DNA from: a phage
Length of the DNA stretch: 64,000 bases
Reading direction: 5' to 3' (one strand)
Sequence record: PV805638.1
Position numbers and translations under genes: made by a program. This document shows positions 1 to 64,000 of the stretch, one piece after another. The notes below the pieces were generated by a model that was given only the letters and a program-made list of their open reading frames with translations, did not search any database and was not told the origin of the DNA. The first letter of the stretch is position 1. The number at the start of each line of letters is the position of its first letter.

Positions 1-87
1 TGACTGGGGCTACACCCTTACACTCAACCATCCCCCCCGGTATGTTGACCCTGTAGCCACTACCCTACCCCACCTTACACGTTACAC

Positions 88-100
88 GTTGCTCCGCAAC
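88..100 (+). promoter_or_regulatory. vRNAP-type hairpin early promoter candidate (5-bp stem, 3-nt loop; top strand GTTGC-TCC-GCAAC)
   Basis: Perfect 5-bp inverted repeat with 3-nt loop; template-strand reading GCGGAGC puts G at loop centre and G three positions into the stem, as I recall for N4 vRNAP promoters; 44 nt upstream of first ORF; same core at 767 and 5108. Confidence 0.55.
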
Positions 101-143
101 CTATGGACATGTCGTCCTATCATCAACTATTGGAGCTATCATC

Positions 144-467
144 ATGACTACTACCGCTACTGTACGTATGACCGCAGGAACTCTGCTGGGTACTGTTAAC
201 TCTGCTGCTACTACTGTTGCAGATTCATTCGGTGCTGCTACTAAAGCAGTTGGTATGCTTAATTCTTACGTAGCTACTATGGCAAAGAAACAAGCCATTC
301 GTACTAAATTAGAAATGCATACTTTCGAAAACAAATTAGCTGAAGAAACAGCTATGAACGAGACTATGCGTAAGAAAAGTATCGAAGAATTCTGCAAAGA
401 CCCAGAAAACGCTCGTATCTACAACGCAGAATATTCAAGAATAATTGACATCCTGTCTAAAGACTAA
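144..467 (+). CDS. hypothetical early protein
   Basis: ORF 107 aa, GGAG RBS upstream, first gene after hairpin promoter. Confidence 0.6.
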   Translation: MTTTATVRMTAGTLLGTVNSAATTVADSFGAATKAVGMLNSYVATMAKKQAIRTKLEMHTFENKLAEETAMNETMRKKSIEEFCKDPENARIYNAEYSRIIDILSKD

Positions 468-470
468 ATC

Positions 471-497
471 AATAGGAGGCTCTTCGAGCCTCCTATT
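471..497 (+). other. perfect 12-bp stem / 3-nt loop hairpin (AATAGGAGGCTC-TTC-GAGCCTCCTATT), no U-tract
   Basis: Perfect inverted repeat read directly, immediately after stop of ORF 144..467; not followed by T-run so not a classical intrinsic terminator. Confidence 0.5.
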
Positions 498-556
498 AAG
501 GGCATTAGATAGATAGATAGTCAGTTCTGTATAAAAAGATAGGAGAGATACCTACT

Positions 557-703
557 ATGAGCAAACTAAAAAACGCATTCATGCTGATTGTCAGTGTCCT
601 TGCACTTGTTGCTATGGTTTCCGTATACATTGGAAAACCTCTGGTAAACACTGACTATGGTCATGGTCAGAAAGTAAAATCCATCCTGCTAATGGATAAG
701 TAA
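557..703 (+). CDS. small hydrophobic protein (48 aa, one predicted TM helix)
   Basis: ATG with AGGAGAG RBS 8 nt upstream; hydrophobic core LIVSVLALVAMVSVYI; below the ORF-track length cutoff. Confidence 0.4.
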   Translation: MSKLKNAFMLIVSVLALVAMVSVYIGKPLVNTDYGHGQKVKSILLMDK

Positions 704-766
704 AATGTCCTTGAATCTAAATCACCGTAAGAAACTCTGGATATCTTACATACCCTAAAAGACAAC

Positions 767-779
767 GACGCTCCGCGTC
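767..779 (+). promoter_or_regulatory. vRNAP-type hairpin early promoter candidate (GACGC-TCC-GCGTC)
   Basis: Same GCTCCGC core and 5-bp/3-nt geometry as 88..100; upstream of ORF 888..1271. Confidence 0.55.
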
Positions 780-887
780 TTATGGATGATGTAAATGCAT
801 CCACTAATCATTGAAATTTTATCCTTTTGTTTGGGTGTTCTCACCGACGAGTTCACCCGTCAATCACATAAATCTGGAGAGTACAAA

Positions 888-1271
888 ATGTCTATTCAAA
901 AATTCACTTTCGGTCAATCTAACGCTGCTGCTACTTCTACTGCTAAAACTGATAAACCAAAAGCTCAGTTCTGGCTGAACATTGGTTATGTAGCTAATGA
1001 AGGCTCTGATGATGAGAAATTCATCTCGCTGCCTACTGGTATTCCACTGGATACTCAGGAACCACTGCCAACTAACAGCAGCAATGCTGACTTCCGTGCT
1101 ATGCGTTGTGCACAGAACGATTTGTTAGAACAGTTAATCGAATATGCTCAGAACCTGAAACCAGGTGAAGAAGGCATCATTAACCTGCAAGTTCAACTTC
1201 GTCGTGTGAAAGCAGAGGCTGCTGACATCCCAGCAGACGAGAATAAATATGCTCGTAAACTGACTTTCTAA
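888..1271 (+). CDS. hypothetical early protein (127 aa; ORF track begins at 795 but the RBS-supported ATG is 888)
   Basis: GGAGAG RBS 7 nt before ATG 888; followed by intrinsic terminator. Confidence 0.55.
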
Positions 1272-1414: not shown

Positions 1415-1714
1415 ATGCGTACACTATGTAACCGTTATAATCCAACCGGACTGATTAACATCATGGCCTTATATGGTAGCAAAATGACTTATGGTGCTCG
1501 TTGGCAAGTGTCTGTAGAAGACAAGAATGGCAAATGTCATGACCACTACTTCGTAGCTAAGCCTACTCGTAAACAAATCCGTAAACTTCACAAAGTACGT
1601 AAGCATTACTTACTAAGTAAATGCTACGAATGTGGCAAAAGGATAGAACTAGGTAAAGAATTTACTTTTGATGATCTCAACTATGCTCACAATAACTGCT
1701 TAGGAACTAAATAA
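1415..1714 (+). CDS. hypothetical protein with Cys/His pairs (possible zinc-binding)
   Basis: ORF 99 aa; CHDH ... CYECGKR ... HNNC pattern. Confidence 0.5.
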   Translation: MRTLCNRYNPTGLINIMALYGSKMTYGARWQVSVEDKNGKCHDHYFVAKPTRKQIRKLHKVRKHYLLSKCYECGKRIELGKEFTFDDLNYAHNNCLGTK

Positions 1715-1715
1715 A

Positions 1716-2120
1716 ATGACTACTCATAAAATTGTAAAAAGCTGGACTACTGAAGCTGGTTTATCTGCTGTAATCCTGCTAGTAAATGATGGTTCTCACC
1801 ATTGTGGTTACGTAGCATTGCCTGCTGATTTAGCAGACAAAGACTTTATTAATTATGATCCAGAAGAATCCATTTCTGTTCATGGTGGTGTTACCTATCA
1901 AGATGCACTTCCTCAATTAGAGGATAAAATCGCTATCGGTTTTGATTGTGCTCATCACGGTGACCTCATGAAATGCCCTGAGAAGTACAAAGGTACTCCT
2001 CTGGAAGGACTGCGCATGTATTCAGAAGGTGTATGGCGAGATGAGCAATATTGCACCAATGAGTGTGAGTCTATGGCTAAACAACTAATGGCAATGTTGC
2101 CTAAACAACTAGAAGGATAA
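1716..2120 (+). CDS. hypothetical protein
   Basis: ORF 134 aa, start adjacent to stop of previous gene. Confidence 0.5.
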   Translation: MTTHKIVKSWTTEAGLSAVILLVNDGSHHCGYVALPADLADKDFINYDPEESISVHGGVTYQDALPQLEDKIAIGFDCAHHGDLMKCPEKYKGTPLEGLRMYSEGVWRDEQYCTNECESMAKQLMAMLPKQLEG

Positions 2121-2124
2121 TGCT

Positions 2125-2277
2125 ATGAAGCTACTAGCAGAGATTCTGTGTATTTTATTAATGATACTGCTGGTAGCTGCATTTCCGTGGCTATTAGCCG
2201 TAGGCATTATTATTGGTATGCTCGTAGCCGGAGCGAGTGATGCTCGTGGCAGAGATGAGCCAGGTGGAGATGTGTAA
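2125..2277 (+). CDS. small membrane protein (50 aa)
   Basis: ATG 2125; strongly hydrophobic LLAEILCILLMILLVAAFPWLLAVGIIIGMLVA; below ORF-track cutoff. Confidence 0.4.
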   Translation: MKLLAEILCILLMILLVAAFPWLLAVGIIIGMLVAGASDARGRDEPGGDV

Positions 2278-2606
2278 ACACTGCCAGAAGAGTATGTACG
2301 GGGGAACCAGTGATATTCACTAACATTGAGGATGCCATTGAAGAATGTATCTTCCGTAGATATCACACTGGAGTACAGAAACGACACTATGGTGTTGTGC
2401 AACTCAATGGCTATCAAATGGCTGTAAGAATTGTACGTAACAATAAACCTTTTAACTTTATGTGGAGTACTAAACATGCGTAAGTCATTAATCATGGGAA
2501 CCAAAGCTGACGTACAAAAGATGAAAGAGCGTCTGGCTGCTAAGCAACAGGCATCTGAATCAGTACGTAAGATTGTTACCTTCAATCATCCGTGCATCAA
2601 ATAGTA

Positions 2607-2645
2607 AGGAGTCCTCCAATAGGAGGCTCCTATTTTTTATTTTTG
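2607..2645 (+). terminator. rho-independent terminator
   Basis: GGAG(T)CCTCC-AATA-GGAGGCTCC hairpin with one bulge followed by TATTTTTTATTTTT. Confidence 0.65.
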
Positions 2646-2681
2646 AATAGTTAAATATGTATTTAAATAGGAGAAAGAACC

Positions 2682-2990
2682 TTGAATGAAATAGTATGCA
2701 TACTTCCACACTTAGCTAAAGTAGCTGATAGGAATATACGGATACATTTACCCTTCCCATTAAGTAACCCATTCACTCGTAATGAAAGAACCACAGTAGA
2801 GGATATAGAGGTAGCTTATGAAGCTTACCTTCGTAATCGTCTTATTAGTGGTGACAAATTAATTACAGCAGAGATGGAAAGGATTGCTGGCTTTGTCACA
2901 GATAGTACAAAGAAACCTGTTGGTTTAATTGGTACTGAATCTGATGTTAACGTTATTCGTAAAATATTAATGGAGGCATTAAGCCAATGA
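2682..2990 (+). CDS. hypothetical protein (TTG start)
   Basis: ORF 102 aa; AGGAGA RBS upstream; stop overlaps next ATG (ATGATG). Confidence 0.5.
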   Translation: MNEIVCILPHLAKVADRNIRIHLPFPLSNPFTRNERTTVEDIEVAYEAYLRNRLISGDKLITAEMERIAGFVTDSTKKPVGLIGTESDVNVIRKILMEALSQ

Positions 2991-3208
2991 TGTACTCAAA
3001 CGATTATGGTATATGCCCAGTCTGTAAGAAAGGACGTGGAGTTGCCAATCATAAGCGTTGTAGTCGTATATTGCAGAAGCAACGGAACCAGGAAGAATGG
3101 GCTAAGGTGCTGGAAAATCAGCATAAAGAAGAGAATCAACAGATGGCTGTTAGGGCATCTACTCAACGTATTCGCCGTATTAACTATATACAGGGGTATC
3201 AGAAATGA
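2987..3208 (+). CDS. hypothetical protein with CPVCKK motif
   Basis: ORF 73 aa; coupled ATGA junctions on both sides. Confidence 0.5.
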   Translation: MMYSNDYGICPVCKKGRGVANHKRCSRILQKQRNQEEWAKVLENQHKEENQQMAVRASTQRIRRINYIQGYQK

Positions 3209-3564
3209 AACTGATTGTAGCTGGTGGACGTGACTTCACTGACACCAATCGTATGATTATTGAATTACAAAAGCTAGTGGAATCTGGTGAAATAATTGAT
3301 TCACCTGAACTTGTATGTGGTATGGCTAGAGGAGCAGACATTACAGCATACAATCTCTGGAAAGGAGCAGGAATGATAATACATGAATTTCCTGCTGACT
3401 GGGACAGACTAGGTAAGCGTGCAGGTTATGTACGTAATACCGAAATGGCTAATTTCGCAGATACTCTTGTAGCATTCTGGGATGGTAAGTCAAAAGGAAC
3501 CAAGCACATGATTGATACCATGACCCGGTTCAATAATAAGAAAGTAATAGTGGTGAGGTACTAA
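3205..3564 (+). CDS. DUF2493 (SLOG-family, DprA/LOG-like Rossmann) protein
   Basis: VAGGRDF ... GMARGAD ... EFPADWDRLGKRAGYVRN ... FWDGKSKGT matches the DUF2493 pattern from memory. Confidence 0.6.
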   Translation: MKLIVAGGRDFTDTNRMIIELQKLVESGEIIDSPELVCGMARGADITAYNLWKGAGMIIHEFPADWDRLGKRAGYVRNTEMANFADTLVAFWDGKSKGTKHMIDTMTRFNNKKVIVVRY

Positions 3565-3822
3565 GTGATTATTACATTCCCTGCAACTAAATCATTTAAC
3601 TATATGGGACAAACTATTGAAGTCCCATTATGGGTTAAATATGTAGCCTTATTACCTCGACCACAGAAGAGTAAAAATGCCTCACTAATTGGATTTAGTA
3701 GAAAGCCTAAGCTGACTGAAAACTGTATTTGGAAGTCCAGTGGCAGACAAGAGGAAATTGGTTTTTGTGACTACGTACCTCAACCGAATACAGTATATCT
3801 AACCCTGGAGAAAGTAGAGTGA
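3565..3822 (+). CDS. hypothetical protein (GTG start)
   Basis: ORF 85 aa, GTG immediately after previous stop. Confidence 0.45.
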   Translation: MIITFPATKSFNYMGQTIEVPLWVKYVALLPRPQKSKNASLIGFSRKPKLTENCIWKSSGRQEEIGFCDYVPQPNTVYLTLEKVE

Positions 3823-4133
3823 ATAACATTGTAGTAGTACATGATAATACATTTACTGATGTCGATAAGATGATGCGTAATATTGATTACGTATCTCAGA
3901 CTAGTAAAGCATTCAACGAAGAGTTCACTATCTATTGTGAACCAGAATCACCACTGGTTTCTGTATTAAAAGAAGCAGGTCTACCCTTCTCTACAGAGAA
4001 CTTCCCGGAGGAGCCAGAGTATATGATTACATTCATATATGACTTACATGATGGCTCTCCTGCCAGTGAACTAGCTATGAACCAGTGGAGTAGTAAACGT
4101 CCTGTATATGCTTTCCAGGTACTCAAACCATGA
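3819..4133 (+). CDS. hypothetical protein (GTG start)
   Basis: ORF 104 aa, GTGA overlap with upstream stop. Confidence 0.45.
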   Translation: MNNIVVVHDNTFTDVDKMMRNIDYVSQTSKAFNEEFTIYCEPESPLVSVLKEAGLPFSTENFPEEPEYMITFIYDLHDGSPASELAMNQWSSKRPVYAFQVLKP

Positions 4134-58236: not shown

Positions 58237-58737
58237 CTATTCAAAAAGTTTACGGTCAGCCTGAATTTGCTTACCCAACTCAATTAGTTGGTTGTCACGG
58301 AGTCTAACAGTTGCCCGGAGTTCTTCAACCAAACGTCTGCCTTCTTCAAGACTGTTGTCGAGTCTGGCTGCATGGCTTGCAAGACTTCTGCACTCAAGGG
58401 TTCCGGCTTCGGCTTGACGTTTATATACCGATGCTCGTCTTTCAGACTGTTGCATCCGGCTGTCGTAATCACTGCTAACGCGAGCAAGCTCGCTTGCGTA
58501 ATTACTCTCAGCCGTCTGCAACCGGGAAGTAAGTAACCCGACTTCATAACTATGGTTTCTTTGGAGAGCATTGTATTTGTCCTGTAGTTTTTGTGTTGCC
58601 TTCTGGTCTTCAACCTTTTGAGCATCCCATCTCTTTTGGACAGTAGACTGTCCATTGGAATTGCCCCAAAAGTAAATGGTGGCCCCGAGGACCACCACCA
58701 GAAGATAAGGCCAACCTTTAGAGATTAGCATCTTCAT
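58237..58737 (-). CDS. i-spanin (Rz-like; N-terminal TM, periplasmic coiled coil)
   Basis: N-terminal [18 protein letters not shown] then Gln/Arg/Glu-rich helical region; directly after endolysin; start taken at internal Met. Confidence 0.55.
58284..58547 (-). CDS. o-spanin (Rz1-like lipoprotein) embedded in i-spanin gene in another frame
   Basis: Lipobox-like [12 protein letters not shown] then Pro-rich periplasmic part; entirely inside the i-spanin ORF. Confidence 0.5.
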   Translation of the reverse strand: MKSGYLLPGCRRLRVITQASLLALAVITTAGCNSLKDEHRYINVKPKPEPLSAEVLQAMQPDSTTVLKKADVWLKNSGQLLDSVTTN

Positions 58738-59353
58738 TACATGCCTCCAGTGGTACATTACCGATTCGGTTAGCTACCCAACCATACGTAAAGTCTGGCA
58801 TGTTCAATGAGGTGTAGTGGTTCAATTGTTTAGCATCAAGCAACTTAATCATTACCTGACATGCTGCAACTTTGCCTCGTTTTTTCTGTAATGCTTTATA
58901 TGCATTAACAGTACCTGCACCGACTTTACCATCAACTTGTATTTTAGGGTAGTCTTTGCCATCACGGGACATTTCATTAAGGGATTGCTGCAACCACTTA
59001 GCTGGTCTGGTTACACCGGTATTAACACCAGCATCAACCAGTTTGTGTGTTACAGCAGGAGATATATCAGCGAAGGCTACGAAGTTAGGCTTAATAACGT
59101 AGTCATCAATGTATATCTCAGCAGCCATCTCTTTAGATAAACCCTTCATGGAACCATCCCAACCATACTCAGTAGCCAGAACTTCTTTATGAGACTTAGC
59201 TACTGAATGAGTAATACCATGATTAGTTTCCCCGCCTGGGTCACGAGGATTGTTTACGTATCCCCCTTCCATATAGAACACTGCCCCCAGAATAGCAGCG
59301 ATAACTCCTCCCACCGCACCCCCTTTTGCAGCAAGTTTCTGTTTAGCTTTCAT
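58718..59353 (-). CDS. endolysin, GH108 N-acetylmuramidase with N-terminal signal-anchor and C-terminal PG-binding region
   Basis: EGGYVNNPRDPGGETNHGIT matches GH108 signature; N-terminal Gly/Ala-rich hydrophobic GGAVGGVIAAILGAVFY (SAR-like). Confidence 0.7.
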   Translation of the reverse strand: MKAKQKLAAKGGAVGGVIAAILGAVFYMEGGYVNNPRDPGGETNHGITHSVAKSHKEVLATEYGWDGSMKGLSKEMAAEIYIDDYVIKPNFVAFADISPAVTHKLVDAGVNTGVTRPAKWLQQSLNEMSRDGKDYPKIQVDGKVGAGTVNAYKALQKKRGKVAACQVMIKLLDAKQLNHYTSLNMPDFTYGWVANRIGNVPLEACNEDANL

Positions 59354-59603
59354 GAGAATCTTCCTTTGGATGGAATCGTATTAGTCTACCTACAATGTTT
59401 AAGGCAAATAGTGCGATTGTAATACTGGAACCATGTGGAATATCTTCAAGGATGTGACGTGGTAGTCCCGTCAGCATTGGTTGGATAATATCTACTGTAG
59501 AAAACAGAATTACTCCAAATGCACTAATCTGAACAGATGCCCACTTCCAGGACCTCTTCCAGTTAGGAACTAGCCCTATTTTTCTTTTTAGCTTGCGAAC
59601 CAT
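59343..59603 (-). CDS. putative holin (2 TM)
   Basis: Two hydrophobic helices; immediately upstream of endolysin; ORF-track version extends to 59669. Confidence 0.5.
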   Translation of the reverse strand: MVRKLKRKIGLVPNWKRSWKWASVQISAFGVILFSTVDIIQPMLTGLPRHILEDIPHGSSITIALFALNIVGRLIRFHPKEDSHES

Positions 59604-59920
59604 GCGAATATCTCCCGTCTTGCAGCAGCCAATACACCAATGATTGCACCTGCCCCAGCCCATACCCACTTGCCAAAAATTCCAGCACCTGCAACCTTAT
59701 GTTTAATGGTGATGAACTCTTCGATGGTAGGTTCAGACTTAGTGATGCTCTCCTCTACCCGTTTAAGTCGGGTACTAAGGTCACCCATAGACTCACTTAG
59801 TTTTTTAATAGACTCTTCCATTTTCTCCCTATCCCTCGATTCACGAGTTTGGTTTTCGAAAATGTTTCTTAGTCTCTCTTCGAGTCTGGCTAGAGTTACG
59901 TTATCTGGTTCATTTCCCAT
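59588..59920 (-). CDS. membrane protein with cytoplasmic coiled coil and C-terminal TM (holin/antiholin candidate)
   Basis: 110 aa; C-terminal GAGIFGKWVWAGAGAIIGVLAAA TM. Confidence 0.45.
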   Translation of the reverse strand: MGNEPDNVTLARLEERLRNIFENQTRESRDREKMEESIKKLSESMGDLSTRLKRVEESITKSEPTIEEFITIKHKVAGAGIFGKWVWAGAGAIIGVLAAARREIFAWFAS

Positions 59921-60167
59921 AGGGATTTTCTCAGGTTAGTTAAGTCGTAATTGACTAAAACAGTCTACCTAATGACTTGTTTTTGGTACAACAAAAACCC
60001 ACCCCCCGCAACCTAGTTGGGCTGGTTAAAGCCTGAAATATGGAACAGCAGTCACCAAAACAACAAAGACCATACTTAGGGTTGAGACAATCATATGGGT
60101 GGCTATATGCGTATAATATTTTTAGGGAGCAAGTGTATACTTGCTCCCCAGAGTTATCTCAGAGTCA

Positions 60168-62702
60168 TCAGAACACATAATCCAGTTGCGTAAGCTGCTT
60201 CAACTGAATCTGCACGGTACTATCCAGAGTTACTGCCGGAACAGTTAAGCCAGAAACACCGATTGCAAAGTCCGCAATGAACCCGGTAGTAGGATTCTTT
60301 ACTATATCCGCCCCAGTACCCCCAGAACCTGTACTTGCAAACTGAGTCTGCTTAGTACCATAAGCATTCCCTGTACCCGCAATAACTAGTTGCCATACAC
60401 CCCTGCCGAGCGTACCTGGAATACTCAAGCTACCTGAACCAGCAGCCCGAAATATCTTGGTATTCTCATAGAACATACACTCTTGCAACGTGCAGGTACT
60501 TCTCTGCCCGGTACTCACAACCTGATTACCCCGGAAGCTAAAGTTAGTCTGGTCATTCAGAACGAAGTCACACAGCTTAGCCTCTTGCACCCGCACGTTC
60601 ATATCCAGAGTGTTGGCATGAGCAATCAGGGACTTAGGAATACCTTGCACCTTATATCCAACAGCACGATAACTTAAATCCAGAGAGTTGTACTGCTTCA
60701 CGGAGTTGCCAATCAGCTTAACCGTCTGTCCCCGATATACCTGGGATGCGCTAGCCCCAGCGTTAACTATAATAGCCTCGGTTGTGTTATTGACAGTCTG
60801 ACACTTAAGTACAACCGTATTGTGACTGATATCGATATCCTGGTACACCTGGTATGAGCTATCCCCTGCTCCGGTCGATATAGCTACCCCATCAAAAGCT
60901 CTAAGCTCGCAATAGTTGTTGTGAATCTTAACAAAGGGGTTCGGATACGTCGCTGCCGTAGCCTCCCCGCCGCCACCTACATCGATGCTGCGAGTATACT
61001 TTCCACCTATAAGCAGTCCGGAAGTAGCACTAGCAGGAATATCTCTGGAGCGCACATAGTTGTTGCTAACGATGAGGTTGTATGGTTCGTAGTTTGGATT
61101 CCAACCTGCCCCACATTTAGCATATATACCAACTACGCCGTGCTCAAGGCACATGTTCTCCGTGATGATTACCTGCCCACCACCGTGGAAGTCAATACAC
61201 TTACGACGACAGTTCTTAATCTGGTTTTTAGCAACAACTACGTTCCTGATTCTTCGGTTACGCGCATGCGAAATACCGTACCCAGGGTCGTAGCTATCGT
61301 TCAGAACATCATCACCATAAGGGTGTCCAATATTCTGGATATCGTTGGACTCATAGTTTAGTCTGTAGCCGGACAGTACGTAGATACCTGCACTGTAGCA
61401 ATCCTTGATGGTACAGCCCATAACCATAACACCGTCAGGTACATCCGTGTCATTCGTATAATCCGTGCTGCCGTAGGTAGTCGCAATGTTACGGATGCCG
61501 ATACCAATGCCACCAAAGTTAAAACCGGATACGTGCGAGTTCAGAATAAGGATGCCACGGCAGCCGCGTTGCACCTTGATACCATTAGCCCAGCTTCCGA
61601 TGTAACCGCCAAGGAAAGTCCCCCAGGTACTGCGCCACCCATCCAACTGATTACCCGCGTCATCATAGTTAGGGAACTGTCCAGCTACACCAGCATAAGC
61701 ACCAGACGTGTACGCACTGGAGTCAACGGAGTTATTAGGACCTGTAAACAGTGCTGTATCGTATCCGAAACGAGCCTCACCTTTCTCTGCATAACCAGTA
61801 GGCACATCTATAGCAGGGAACTTGTTAGGGCCACGCACAGTCAGCGATACAGTCACGTTCCGGCAATTTACAAGGGCAAGTCCGTCCAGCCCATGCGTAT
61901 TCACAATTATAGTGCCGTTGGAGATACGAATACCTTCCTTATTTACCAGTGCCAGACACGGACTGTAGTTACGTGTACCGTCGCTGAAGTCAGGCTCAGT
62001 AGGGTACGTAGAAGCCAATGCAGGATTTTTTCGAACTAAATATGTCTTTCCTCCTAAATCAATATCTCCAGTGGCGGCGTCGAAACATGCCTGCACTGCC
62101 AACGTATCGTCGGCAACGCCATCGCCAACCGCCCCCCATCCACGTGGATCGCCATTATCACGCCAGCGAGCCATTTGTAGTTCGGGGTATTTTGTTGCAC
62201 CTTCAGGGTCTGAAATCTGTCCTCGTAGCACCACATCCCCAACACTCACCCAAGCACCCAGACCAACACCACCAGAAGTTTTAGGGGTTGAGTCGGCAGG
62301 AACTACTTTAGGCAATACACCATCCCATCGATACTTACCATCGGTAAAGACAACCAGTTCATTCTTGGTATTAACTGTTACACCAGTATCAAATGAACCA
62401 GGTAAGGTTACATACTCTTCACGAGCAACAGCAAGTGCACCTAAGTCCACACTACCAGCAGAGTGTACTAATACCCCAGATGGACTAAGACTTGCAGCAG
62501 TAACCCCTGAACCAATGTCAGCAGGTAAGGAATAAGCACGCTGTGTCTCCTTGTCGTAGATGACTTTGTAACCACTTAGTACAGCACCCACTGAGAAGTA
62601 AACAACCTCAGATTGCTTAACTCCAAAGTGACGGGCTACTGCTTGTTTATTGGTTAAGATTCCAGTTGAACCTTTACCACCTTGAGAGAACATTTCGTTC
62701 AT
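60168..62702 (-). CDS. tailspike with pectate-lyase-like right-handed beta-helix (putative polysaccharide depolymerase)
   Basis: 844 aa; GAVGDGVADDTLAVQACFDAA resembles the pectate_lyase_3 N-cap motif; repeated G/N/I-rich beta-helix rungs. Confidence 0.65.
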   Translation of the reverse strand: MNEMFSQGGKGSTGILTNKQAVARHFGVKQSEVVYFSVGAVLSGYKVIYDKETQRAYSLPADIGSGVTAASLSPSGVLVHSAGSVDLGALAVAREEYVTLPGSFDTGVTVNTKNELVVFTDGKYRWDGVLPKVVPADSTPKTSGGVGLGAWVSVGDVVLRGQISDPEGATKYPELQMARWRDNGDPRGWGAVGDGVADDTLAVQACFDAATGDIDLGGKTYLVRKNPALASTYPTEPDFSDGTRNYSPCLALVNKEGIRISNGTIIVNTHGLDGLALVNCRNVTVSLTVRGPNKFPAIDVPTGYAEKGEARFGYDTALFTGPNNSVDSSAYTSGAYAGVAGQFPNYDDAGNQLDGWRSTWGTFLGGYIGSWANGIKVQRGCRGILILNSHVSGFNFGGIGIGIRNIATTYGSTDYTNDTDVPDGVMVMGCTIKDCYSAGIYVLSGYRLNYESNDIQNIGHPYGDDVLNDSYDPGYGISHARNRRIRNVVVAKNQIKNCRRKCIDFHGGGQVIITENMCLEHGVVGIYAKCGAGWNPNYEPYNLIVSNNYVRSRDIPASATSGLLIGGKYTRSIDVGGGGEATAATYPNPFVKIHNNYCELRAFDGVAISTGAGDSSYQVYQDIDISHNTVVLKCQTVNNTTEAIIVNAGASASQVYRGQTVKLIGNSVKQYNSLDLSYRAVGYKVQGIPKSLIAHANTLDMNVRVQEAKLCDFVLNDQTNFSFRGNQVVSTGQRSTCTLQECMFYENTKIFRAAGSGSLSIPGTLGRGVWQLVIAGTGNAYGTKQTQFASTGSGGTGADIVKNPTTGFIADFAIGVSGLTVPAVTLDSTVQIQLKQLTQLDYVF

Positions 62703-62751
62703 ATAAACCTCATTGTTTTTCTAGGTAAGCCCCCAACTACGGGGGCTTTGA

Positions 62752-64000
62752 TTAAAGCAGTGTGTATTCCACTGTAGATGGAAGGGGGACACCTACTGCT
62801 ACAGGTCTGTTTACTGTAATTACACCAGCAGAGCAAGAAGCAGTATCGTTTGCAGTAGCTGGGTCAACTACCCATGAGCGAACTCTATACGACTTAGTTG
62901 TGTCTGCATTAGGTATAGTTAATGTTCCAGAAGTGGCCCCAATAGCAACAGGAACACTTACTACCCCATTGGTAGCAGGTGTGCCTCTATTAGAACGATA
63001 GTAATTATAAGAATTGGAAGGCTTCAATATTTCCTCAATACCAGTTAATCCGGAATTTTGCACTACAACATCACTAGAACCAGTTAGGTACAACGGATTT
63101 GCCAAAGTACATGAATCAATAACAATACCCCCACCAGTATGGTTAAAAATTGCTATACCCGACCACCCACCGACAAACGTAGACTGGCCGATGTATACAG
63201 GCCCAACATGTTGGCCAGCAATGTTAATACCAATGTTATTATTGAGAGGGTTGGCATTATGCAAATTACAGTGCAAACCAGTAATCGATTTCTGTTGTTG
63301 GATTTGGTTAGCGTTTAAAGAGACTGCAAAAAATTGCTCTGTGGACTCACCATCGCCAGCTATCCATGAATCTGACAGGTTAAATCCACCGTTAACGTTA
63401 ATAATAGCCACGGCATTCTTTCGAATGTAATCCAAATCCAGATTACTCATCTGCAAGTCCAGGCAGTCATCAACATAGATGCCATAATCTACGGAAATAC
63501 ACATAGTTTCCCCATCAATAACGATGGCTTCACTACGAGATCCTGAACTCTGGTCAGGACTCCACGCATACACCCTAGGCTGGATGCGAATGCCAAACGT
63601 GTTACCCAATGTAGAATAATGATCACGGCGGAAATGGCATCCCGTGATATTGATAGAAACGTTTTGCCCCCATAGATGTAACCCCATACGGCAGCTACTA
63701 GTAGTGCAGTTACGCAACGTAGAATGCCACAACCCCTGTAGTTGCATTCCTATTTCAAACACCTCAGCACAAACACCCTGGATATCGAAACCGTAAATTT
63801 GCTGTTCTGCCTCGGCAGTGGATTCAATATCTGTACCAATCCCTATGCCAGTGCCATTCCCCTGCAAGCGGAAATTGTATAAATAACGGCCAGATATCCC
63901 GCCTCCATGCATCAAAACTAACAGACCTTTACCGAGATCAGTGTAGGTTTTAAGACACGAGTTAATACCCTCGCCTCTTAGATTAACAAATGGCTTGAGC
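62752..64000 (-). CDS. second beta-helix tail fibre/tailspike, 5'-truncated by window edge
   Basis: Frame stays open with no stop from 63915 to 64000 on the - strand; Asn/Gly/Ile-rich repeats. Confidence 0.55.
   Translation of the reverse strand, partial: LKPFVNLRGEGINSCLKTYTDLGKGLLVLMHGGGISGRYLYNFRLQGNGTGIGIGTDIESTAEAEQQIYGFDIQGVCAEVFEIGMQLQGLWHSTLRNCTTSSCRMGLHLWGQNVSINITGCHFRRDHYSTLGNTFGIRIQPRVYAWSPDQSSGSRSEAIVIDGETMCISVDYGIYVDDCLDLQMSNLDLDYIRKNAVAIINVNGGFNLSDSWIAGDGESTEQFFAVSLNANQIQQQKSITGLHCNLHNANPLNNNIGINIAGQHVGPVYIGQSTFVGGWSGIAIFNHTGGGIVIDSCTLANPLYLTGSSDVVVQNSGLTGIEEILKPSNSYNYYRSNRGTPATNGVVSVPVAIGATSGTLTIPNADTTKSYRVRSWVVDPATANDTASCSAGVITVNRPVAVGVPLPSTVEYTLL

Follow-up and report, generated by a model that had tools for sequence, protein, structure and literature searches.

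An apparent G7C-type receptor-binding module with a new pair of receptor-binding domains in an N4-like phage

Background

When two tailspike genes are found side by side in a phage genome, a twofold question arises: do they encode one receptor-binding apparatus, and which surface polysaccharides would such an apparatus recognize? Here we address this question for a 64,000-nucleotide stretch of phage DNA (sequence record PV805638.1; hereinafter, the window), in which two open reading frames (ORFs), denoted ORF A and ORF B, occupy positions 60168 to 64000. An earlier examination of the same stretch, made from the letters and translations without database searches (hereinafter, the sequence-only reading), took the two ORFs for tandem beta-helix tailspikes and gave their bounds exactly, leaving the strand unstated. 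Both ORFs are located on the minus strand, with ORF B first and ORF A second in the order of transcription:

60168..62702, minus strand: ORF A, 844 amino acids (aa), ATG start; secondary tailspike in the slot of G7C gp63.1, as judged from the ORF list and the synteny with phage G7C
62752..>64000, minus strand: ORF B, with 415 C-terminal codons visible in the translation, the stop codon at 62752-62754, and the frame open to the window edge

As had been noticed in the sequence-only reading, ORF B runs off the window; because the gene is on the minus strand, it is the N-terminus, not the C-terminus, that is cut off. In our assessment, the locus is very probably a receptor-binding module of the kind known from Escherichia phage G7C that is equipped with a new pair of receptor-binding domains (RBDs), namely, an Sf6-type domain in ORF B and a domain typical of Enterobacter phages in ORF A.

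Results and discussion

A G7C-like backbone with a gp63.1-type head

The segment of the window between 40000 and 60000 shows, over its full length, 95.9% identity to Escherichia phage G7C, the type species of the genus Gamaleyavirus in the family Schitoviridae, and 92-94% identity to dozens of other relatives. By these alignments, the window phage is a Gamaleyavirus, that is, a G7C-like N4-type podophage. In G7C, the genes for the portal protein, Rz/Rz1, endolysin, holin, gp63, gp63.1, gp66, gp67 and terminase follow one another on the same strand, gp63.1 and gp66 being the tailspikes, and annotated 16-bp hairpin repeats are found on either side of gp63.1. In the window, the segment 59500-60010 corresponds, with 95% identity, to gp63 of G7C together with the terminator that precedes this gene, and is then followed by the lysis cassette and the portal gene. 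The nucleotide (nt) homology to G7C extends up to 60010, is missing between 60011 and 62351, and is found again only at 62352-62732 (87% nt identity), a segment that comprises the leader and codons 1-117 of ORF A. Since the homology resumes only over the leader and head of ORF A, this ORF occupies the gp63.1 slot; ORF B, directly upstream, has the position of gp66 in G7C. The N4-like context, which the sequence-only reading had surmised, is thus apparent from the late region, with gp63 as the downstream neighbor, the lysis genes, and the same strand as in G7C.

The homologues of both ORFs were retrieved with E-values from 1e-71 to below 1e-240, far outside chance similarity. The N-terminal part of ORF A has clear structural counterparts:

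62208..62702, minus strand: ORF A head (residues 1-165), D1-D2 domains of the gp63.1/TSP1 type, identified by Pfam (Tail_spike_N at residues 91-156), Protein Data Bank (PDB) matches and identity to G7C

Specifically, residues 1-170 of ORF A are 71% identical to the N-terminus of G7C gp63.1 (its residues 1-174), the Tail_spike_N domain (PF18668) is recognized with an E-value of 5e-24, and the head matches the PDB structures 4QNL (gp63.1; E 1e-71) and 4OJ5 (TSP1 of phage CBA120; E 4e-85), with further structural matches to TSP3, TSP4 and gp48 of Shigella phage B2. For gp63.1 to bind gp66, the XD3 domain of the latter is required; in CBA120, the partner of TSP1 is the XD3 domain of TSP4 (PMC8825819). 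By homology, the head of ORF A would be a docking module for the XD3 domain of a gp66/TSP4-type protein.

The Sf6-type domain of ORF B

The 415 visible residues of ORF B align from end to end with the tailspike of phage Sf6 (2VBE/2VBK/4URR; E 3e-93, residues 110-512 of the 2VBE chain), and the Tailspike_C domain (PF21519) is found at visible residues 344-413 (E 2e-18). The match spans Sf6 residues ~219-621 and includes the C-terminal beta-sandwich as well as the equivalents of E366 and D399, which we take to be the catalytic residues of the Sf6 tailspike; their roles are reportedly described in the structure paper of Mueller et al. 2008. In the three-way alignment of ORF B with Sf6 and SFN6B, these equivalents are located as follows:

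63529..63531, minus strand: Glu equivalent to Sf6 E366, visible residue 157 of ORF B, in SRSEAIV
63430..63432, minus strand: Asp equivalent to Sf6 D399, visible residue 190 of ORF B, the second D of LDLDY

Both motifs, SRSEAIV and LDLDY, are common to ORF B, SFN6B and Sf6. The beta-helix that the sequence-only reading had ascribed to ORF B is accordingly that of a solved tailspike. The reading had called ORF B rich in Asn and Gly, and it is, with 11.8% Gly and 7.7% Asn as compared to 5.3% each in the portal protein; ORF A is just as rich (12.6% Gly, 6.3% Asn).

At the aa level, ORF B is 95% identical to the spike of Moonfish (Schitoviridae) and 89% identical to that of SFN6B (Drulisvirus), both close variants of the Sf6 type, and shows 49% identity to Buco and 43% to Sf6 itself. 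Unlike Sf6, with its P22-type head-binding N-terminus, the close relatives of ORF B carry another adaptor and, given that ORF B is only 43% identical to the Sf6 tailspike, its fine specificity for serotype modifications may differ. A tblastn search with ORF B in 50,697 phage records returned only 8 matches, all in Shigella flexneri phages. Moonfish forms plaques on S. flexneri serotype Y; it does not do so on serotype 2a2, on Salmonella, or on laboratory E. coli (PMC12160474). The best-supported reading of these data is that ORF B would be an endorhamnosidase of the Sf6 family specific to the unmodified or lightly modified O-antigen backbone of S. flexneri. The E. coli serogroups O13, O129 and O135 have an O-antigen with this same backbone. 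Of the polysaccharide targets listed in the sequence-only reading, the O-antigen fits ORF B, as a member of the Sf6 endorhamnosidase family with relatives only in S. flexneri phages, but a capsule does not.

The beta-helix of ORF A and its relatives

The remainder of ORF A belongs to a different family:

60171..62135, minus strand: receptor-binding part of ORF A, a right-handed parallel beta-helix (residues ~190-740) and a C-terminal beta domain (residues ~745-840), Enterobacter-phage/P46FS4 type
62103..62135, minus strand: GAVGDGVADDT, residues 190-200, the cap motif at the start of the beta-helix

For ORF A, the beta-helix proposed from the sequence was recovered by structure prediction. The AlphaFold2 model, built with 34 homologues, has a mean predicted local distance difference test (pLDDT) score of 85, with most 10-residue blocks between ~190 and 740 at 85-98, and has the shape of a long all-beta solenoid to which a beta domain is added at the C-terminus; its fold neighbors are tailspikes and glycosidases with a right-handed beta-helix. 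An assignment of the catalytic class from these neighbors was rejected, since hydrolases, lyases, epimerases and adhesins score alike. The Beta_helix family (PF13229) is recognized in ORF A with an E-value of 1.5e-10, and a sub-threshold match to PF12218 covers GAVGDGVADDT. In the 34 homologues, G190, A191, G193, D194, G195, D198, D199 and T200 vary little or not at all, and the motif aligns with 'avgdgiaddt' of CBA120 TSP1. The Pectate_lyase_3 profile (PF12708) does not match ORF A at E<=0.01; it is carried by some of the homologues. Because CBA120 TSP1 also has the motif and ORF A misses PF12708, the motif is uninformative on the choice between lyase and hydrolase: as judged from these comparisons, it is a signature of the N-terminal cap in the PF12708/beta-helix superfamily. 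The pectate-lyase-like motif of the sequence-only reading is present, but it marks a fold and not a lyase chemistry.

The 46 protein-database homologues of the ORF A body come mostly from Enterobacter hormaechei prophages, or from phages. At the nt level, the receptor-binding part is 88-91% identical to the spikes of E. cloacae phages (60157-62342) and to Agtrevirus P46FS4 (60199-61997). The aa identity is 89-91% to the E. cloacae phages SDFMU_Pec and vB_Ecl_MII_002, the Kayfunavirus IJM phages and ORF5 of P46FS4, 64-72% to other Enterobacter phages, and 70% to Peacock and LS2, which infect E. coli, as well as to S. boydii phages; it drops to 45% for the tailspike of HF4s, a P22-like phage of E. 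coli 4s. The hosts of the phage relatives are E. cloacae (64-91% aa identity), E. coli (70%) and S. boydii (70%). The spikes of the E. cloacae phages and ORF5 of P46FS4 differ from ORF A in the N-terminal adaptor, which is of the T7 type in Autographiviridae, and no published substrate for these spikes was found in the records used. The GC content of the receptor-binding part (60168-62351) is 49%, as compared to 43.7% in the window and 43.6% in ORF B, which fits a recent import from a higher-GC source of the Enterobacter type.

Among the relatives, the contig L004 (ENA ERZ25038442 NODE_494) contains, at 1532-4066, a homologue that is 91% identical to ORF A, has the same type of head and is preceded by a similar hairpin and a diverged leader. 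This contig belongs to a podophage whose portal is of the SU10 type and whose lysis cassette is different; the upstream gene, of which 492 residues are visible, shows no detectable gp66-type N-terminus. The presence of the homologue in such a different podophage indicates that the whole spike gene moves between phage families. A separate observation concerns Enterobacter phage 04_vB_Eclo_IJM (L033, OP272493) and its sister IJM/MII records, where the spike region is annotated as ~10 tiny hypothetical coding sequences and the tblastn matches fall into several pieces, which suggests frameshift errors in these assemblies.

Borders of the exchanged cassettes

The homologies described above break off at well-defined points, at or near which the following elements are found:

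62727..62748, minus strand: hairpin AAGCCCCCG-UAGU-UGGGGGCUU, 9-bp GC stem and 4-nt loop; AAGCCCCCGTAGTTGGGGGCTT
62703..62726, minus strand: conserved leader ACCTAGAAAAACAATGAGGTTTAT, with a GAGG Shine-Dalgarno sequence, before the ATG of ORF A
60123..60150, minus strand: downstream hairpin, 12-bp stem, 17 nt past the stop codon of ORF A, no U-tract (-21.3 kcal/mol, z -5.8)
59990..60025, minus strand: terminator-like element, a weak stem followed by GTTTTTGTTGT, at the point where the G7C backbone homology resumes

A hairpin with no U-tract had been placed between the two genes at 62710..62745; the hairpin is real and indeed has no U-tract, but its position is 62727..62748. The 61-nt intergenic stretch folds with -18.3 kcal/mol (z = -2.8), and none of 200 shuffled sequences folds as well. 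The stem is followed by ACCUAGAAAAAC and runs directly into ACCTAGAAAAACAATGAGGTTTATATG, that is, the leader and Shine-Dalgarno sequence of gp63.1-type genes. The same hairpin is found after the Sf6-type spike of Moonfish, where it is followed by TTTTTTGTTGT and then by gp63, and so is an ordinary terminator; in the metagenomic locus L008, it also follows the spike gene, with one extra C. Because the homology to Moonfish stops at 62727 and the homology to G7C and PhAPEC7 starts at 62732-62733, the hairpin marks the 3' end of an imported Sf6-type cassette, with the junction at its foot. From this comparison, the hairpin is identified as the terminator stem of the upstream Sf6-type cassette, the T-tract of which was lost at the recombination junction. 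A functional intrinsic terminator at this place was considered and rejected: no terminator was detected on the minus strand of 59500-64000 in a consensus scan, and what follows the stem is ACCUAG. A promoter hairpin of the type used by the N4 virion RNA polymerase was also dropped, as the locus belongs to a late structural operon and the cassette comparison explains the hairpin.

The leader itself (TAGAAAAACAAWGAGG) also precedes the gp63.1/TSP1-type genes of 7 other N4-like loci and of 2 loci of Ackermannviridae. Its combination with a GC hairpin of variable sequence was followed in eight N4-like loci (the window, G7C, Moonfish, L008, L017, L021, L025 and L026); the two Ackermannviridae loci with hairpin and leader are L018 and L028, and the non-N4 locus L004 has a diverged form. 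In most of these loci, the spacer between stem and leader consists of 2-7 Ts; the copy in the window has no T-run. The leader and the GC hairpin look like a 5' cassette boundary shared by two unrelated phage families. Motifs related to the hairpin-preceded leader have been reported (PMC10408124).

Within ORF A, the 5' junction of the imported cassette is located at residues 117-121, within VVFTDGKYRWDG, in the conserved head motif ...FTDGKYRWDG.... The homology to the donors ends at the stop codon, near 60157-60160, and is followed by an orphan 3' untranslated region of ~150 nt (60011-60159) that is homologous neither to G7C nor to the Enterobacter-phage donors. It includes the hairpin at 60123-60150, the tail of which is A-rich, not U-rich. 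From 60010 downwards, the sequence is 95% identical to G7C, and the element at 59990-60025 aligns with the terminators of G7C and Moonfish. Its interpretation as a strong terminator was rejected, given that it folds no better than shuffled sequences; it is terminator-like by position and T-run, and the spike transcription unit probably ends here. A stem-loop resembling a terminator is known from earlier work to lie between g63.1 and g66 and has been proposed as a recombination boundary (bioRxiv 10.1101/542787), and a conserved terminator motif has been found downstream of the RBDs (PMC10408124).

Farther downstream, an Rz-like ORF (58237-58758, minus strand) contains a second ORF (58284-58655, listed as 123 aa) embedded in another frame, an arrangement comparable to the gp60/gp60' (Rz/Rz1) spanin pair of G7C.

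Comparison with known systems

The closest known system is the branched gp63.1-gp66 tailspike complex of G7C (Prokhorov et al. 2017; 4QNL), with which the locus shares the genus-level backbone (96% nt identity), the position, the strand, the hairpin-plus-leader layout and the head (71% identity). Both RBDs are unrelated: gp63.1 of G7C is an O-antigen deacetylase of the SGNH type whereas ORF A is a beta-helix, and the place of the gp66 C-terminus appears to be taken by the Sf6-type domain; the hairpin also differs in sequence and has no T-run. Judging from its description, a similar replacement is seen in Alt63, where gp63.1A, an O-antigen depolymerase of the beta-helix type, occupies the gp63.1 position in place of the esterase; the Alt63 protein has been reported as an O-antigen depolymerase with host-range consequences (bioRxiv 10.1101/542787; PMC10743462).

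The branched TSP1-TSP4 tailspike complex of CBA120 (Kuttervirus) offers another parallel: residues 1-204 of ORF A match TSP1 (E 4e-85) and share with it the plan of D1-D2 head, neck and beta-helix. In the Ackermannviridae loci L018 and L028, a hairpin and the TAGAAAAACAATGAGG leader precede a gp63.1/TSP1-type spike gene, as they do in the window. Unlike the window phage, with two visible spikes and an N4-like podovirus tail, CBA120 is a myovirus with four spikes on its baseplate, and the RBDs are unrelated. Branched two-spike modules, RBD exchange and the intergenic stem-loop have all been described already for G7C-like phages.

The pairing of domains is a different matter. By megablast, no INPHARED record spans >=80% of 60000-64000; an exact-protein look-up for ORF A gave no recorded identical entry; none of the 24 IMG/VR loci with ORF A relatives is the same phage; and a junction-specific 33-mer and 22-mer had zero matches in IMG/VR and the JGI metagenomes. 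Judged by these searches, the pairing of these two RBDs is absent from the INPHARED collection and previously unrecorded, the module design itself being well known.

Proposed mechanism

The gene structure, the homologies, the fold, the conserved catalytic residues and the mosaic junctions observed here suggest a scenario for the physical complex, the enzymatic activities, the substrates and the co-transcription of the two genes. A gp66-type protein would anchor the module to the tail, and the ORF A trimer would dock by its head onto the T4-gp10-like XD3 domain of this anchor, resulting in a branched two-spike complex at each tail vertex. The tandem spikes of the sequence-only reading are, indeed, two adjacent tailspike genes but, by homology, they would form such a branched complex, with ORF A held on a gp66-type adaptor. 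The ORF B domain would bind and hydrolyze the rhamnose-rich O-antigen backbone of S. flexneri, with the sites located between the trimer subunits, and the beta-helix of ORF A would recognize, and probably depolymerize, a different polysaccharide, similar in type to the targets of Enterobacter cloacae phages. Both enzymatic beta-helices would process surface polysaccharides and thus bring the tail to the outer membrane. The possession of two spikes could either widen the host range, as in CBA120, or serve the action on one host, as in G7C.

As for the origin of the module, each RBD would have been acquired as a recombination cassette, with the outer junctions in terminator hairpins. The hairpin at 62727-62748 would have arrived with the Sf6-type cassette, its T-tract being lost to the ORF A leader; because the hairpin has no T-run, read-through from ORF B to ORF A is to be expected. 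Gamaleyavirus phages have two receptor-binding proteins (RBPs) with many RBD subtypes, the RBDs being flanked by conserved motifs and a terminator (PMC10408124), and their RBP modules are hotspots of domain swapping (bioRxiv 10.1101/542787; PMC10408124). In line with these documented hotspots, the two spikes are very probably host-range determinants, as the sequence-only reading had supposed.

Alternative interpretations

The layout of the module deserves a separate discussion. We consider it likely that the layout is the standard one with two spikes, where ORF B is the gp66-type anchor spike: in 8 of 8 N4-like loci, the gp66-type gene is located directly upstream of the gp63.1-type gene, and each locus has exactly one gp63.1-type head. 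A number of observations weigh against this reading, or against the module as proposed. The N-terminus of ORF B lies beyond the window, and the substrate of ORF A is deduced solely from the hosts of the phages that carry its relatives. Furthermore, the 95%-identical RBD of Moonfish sits on a 666-aa protein that starts with MNEMFSQGG, has a head 84% identical to that of ORF A, and is preceded by a 377-aa truncated gp66; in L008, an 874-aa gp66-like protein is followed by a 665-aa spike of the Moonfish kind. All five relatives with >=91% identity to the ORF B domain are 632-720 aa long, none reaching the length of gp66, and relatives at this level carry other N-terminal types, the gp63.1 type being found in Moonfish and P0049 (L008). 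ORF B could, then, be a second gp63.1-type spike, with a separate gp66-type protein, full-length or truncated, encoded beyond 64000. The hairpin after ORF B is that found after the gp63.1-type spikes of Moonfish and L008, and the XD2 domain of gp66, which has no known partner (PMC8825819), might accommodate such a spike. Nevertheless, this three-spike arrangement appears to be the less probable one: neither the 8 N4-like loci nor the listed Gamaleyavirus records of the phage collection provided an instance, each of these records having one gp63.1-type head at E<=1e-20, and domains of the ORF B family are found on at least four N-terminal types, so that the likeness of an RBD predicts the N-terminus poorly. 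Should it be true, two near-identical heads would either compete for XD3, giving rise to mixed virions, or fill both XD3 and XD2, which would provide a function for XD2 and a Kuttervirus-like multi-branch complex on a podovirus. As regards the Moonfish record itself (PQ613263), the 666-aa spike, with its gp63.1-type N-terminus, is a single ORF across the origin of the circular record (68140..69166 + 1..974; L003 and L001), where only a 311-aa 'tailspike' (39..974) is annotated and 68080-69166 is unannotated; the 'tail protein' gp84 is gp66 truncated to its anchor/XD part of 377 aa.

Apart from the layout, the chemistry and the very activity of the spikes are to be considered. ORF A might be a true polysaccharide lyase, acting by beta-elimination on an acidic capsule or exopolysaccharide and not as an O-antigen glycosidase; a review calls Alt63 gp63.1 a lyase-type depolymerase (PMC10743462), and PF12708 is present in some ORF A homologues. 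We hold this to be unlikely, given that GAVGDGVADDT is a fold signature common to hydrolases and shared by CBA120 TSP1, that ORF A remains below the PF12708 threshold, and that the relatives include, at 45% identity, the tailspike of HF4s, a P22-like phage of E. coli 4s. It is still harder to envisage that one of the spikes is inactive, binding-only or vestigial, for instance, a passenger of recombination, with the host range set by a single spike. The gp66-like appendage of Moo19 has no demonstrated role in host range (PMC11654681), the catalytic residues of ORF A cannot be named, and the foreign GC content of its RBD (49% vs 43.7%) suggests a recent acquisition. Yet both ORFs are intact, ORF B has kept both Sf6 catalytic residues, and ORF A has 27 invariant and many nearly invariant positions across the 34 homologues, down to 23% identity, including acidic/histidine clusters among the conserved positions (R500, K501, D504, H506); in G7C, moreover, the enzymatic activity of gp63.1 is needed for infection (PMC10743462). 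Hence, a G7C-type module in which both spikes act on polysaccharides remains our preferred interpretation.

Conclusions

The junctions in this locus are unusually clean: one is located in the YRWDG head motif, one at the base of a terminator hairpin, and one within a second terminator. They provide a clear additional example for the published view that exchangeable RBD cassettes are delimited by conserved motifs and stem-loops. The locus also allows a prediction of the receptors, namely, the Y-type O-antigen of S. flexneri and a second polysaccharide, of the kind recognized by Enterobacter cloacae phages. The host range of such a phage may, therefore, cross genera or serogroups, which would be relevant to phage typing, to therapy cocktails and to engineering by RBD swaps.

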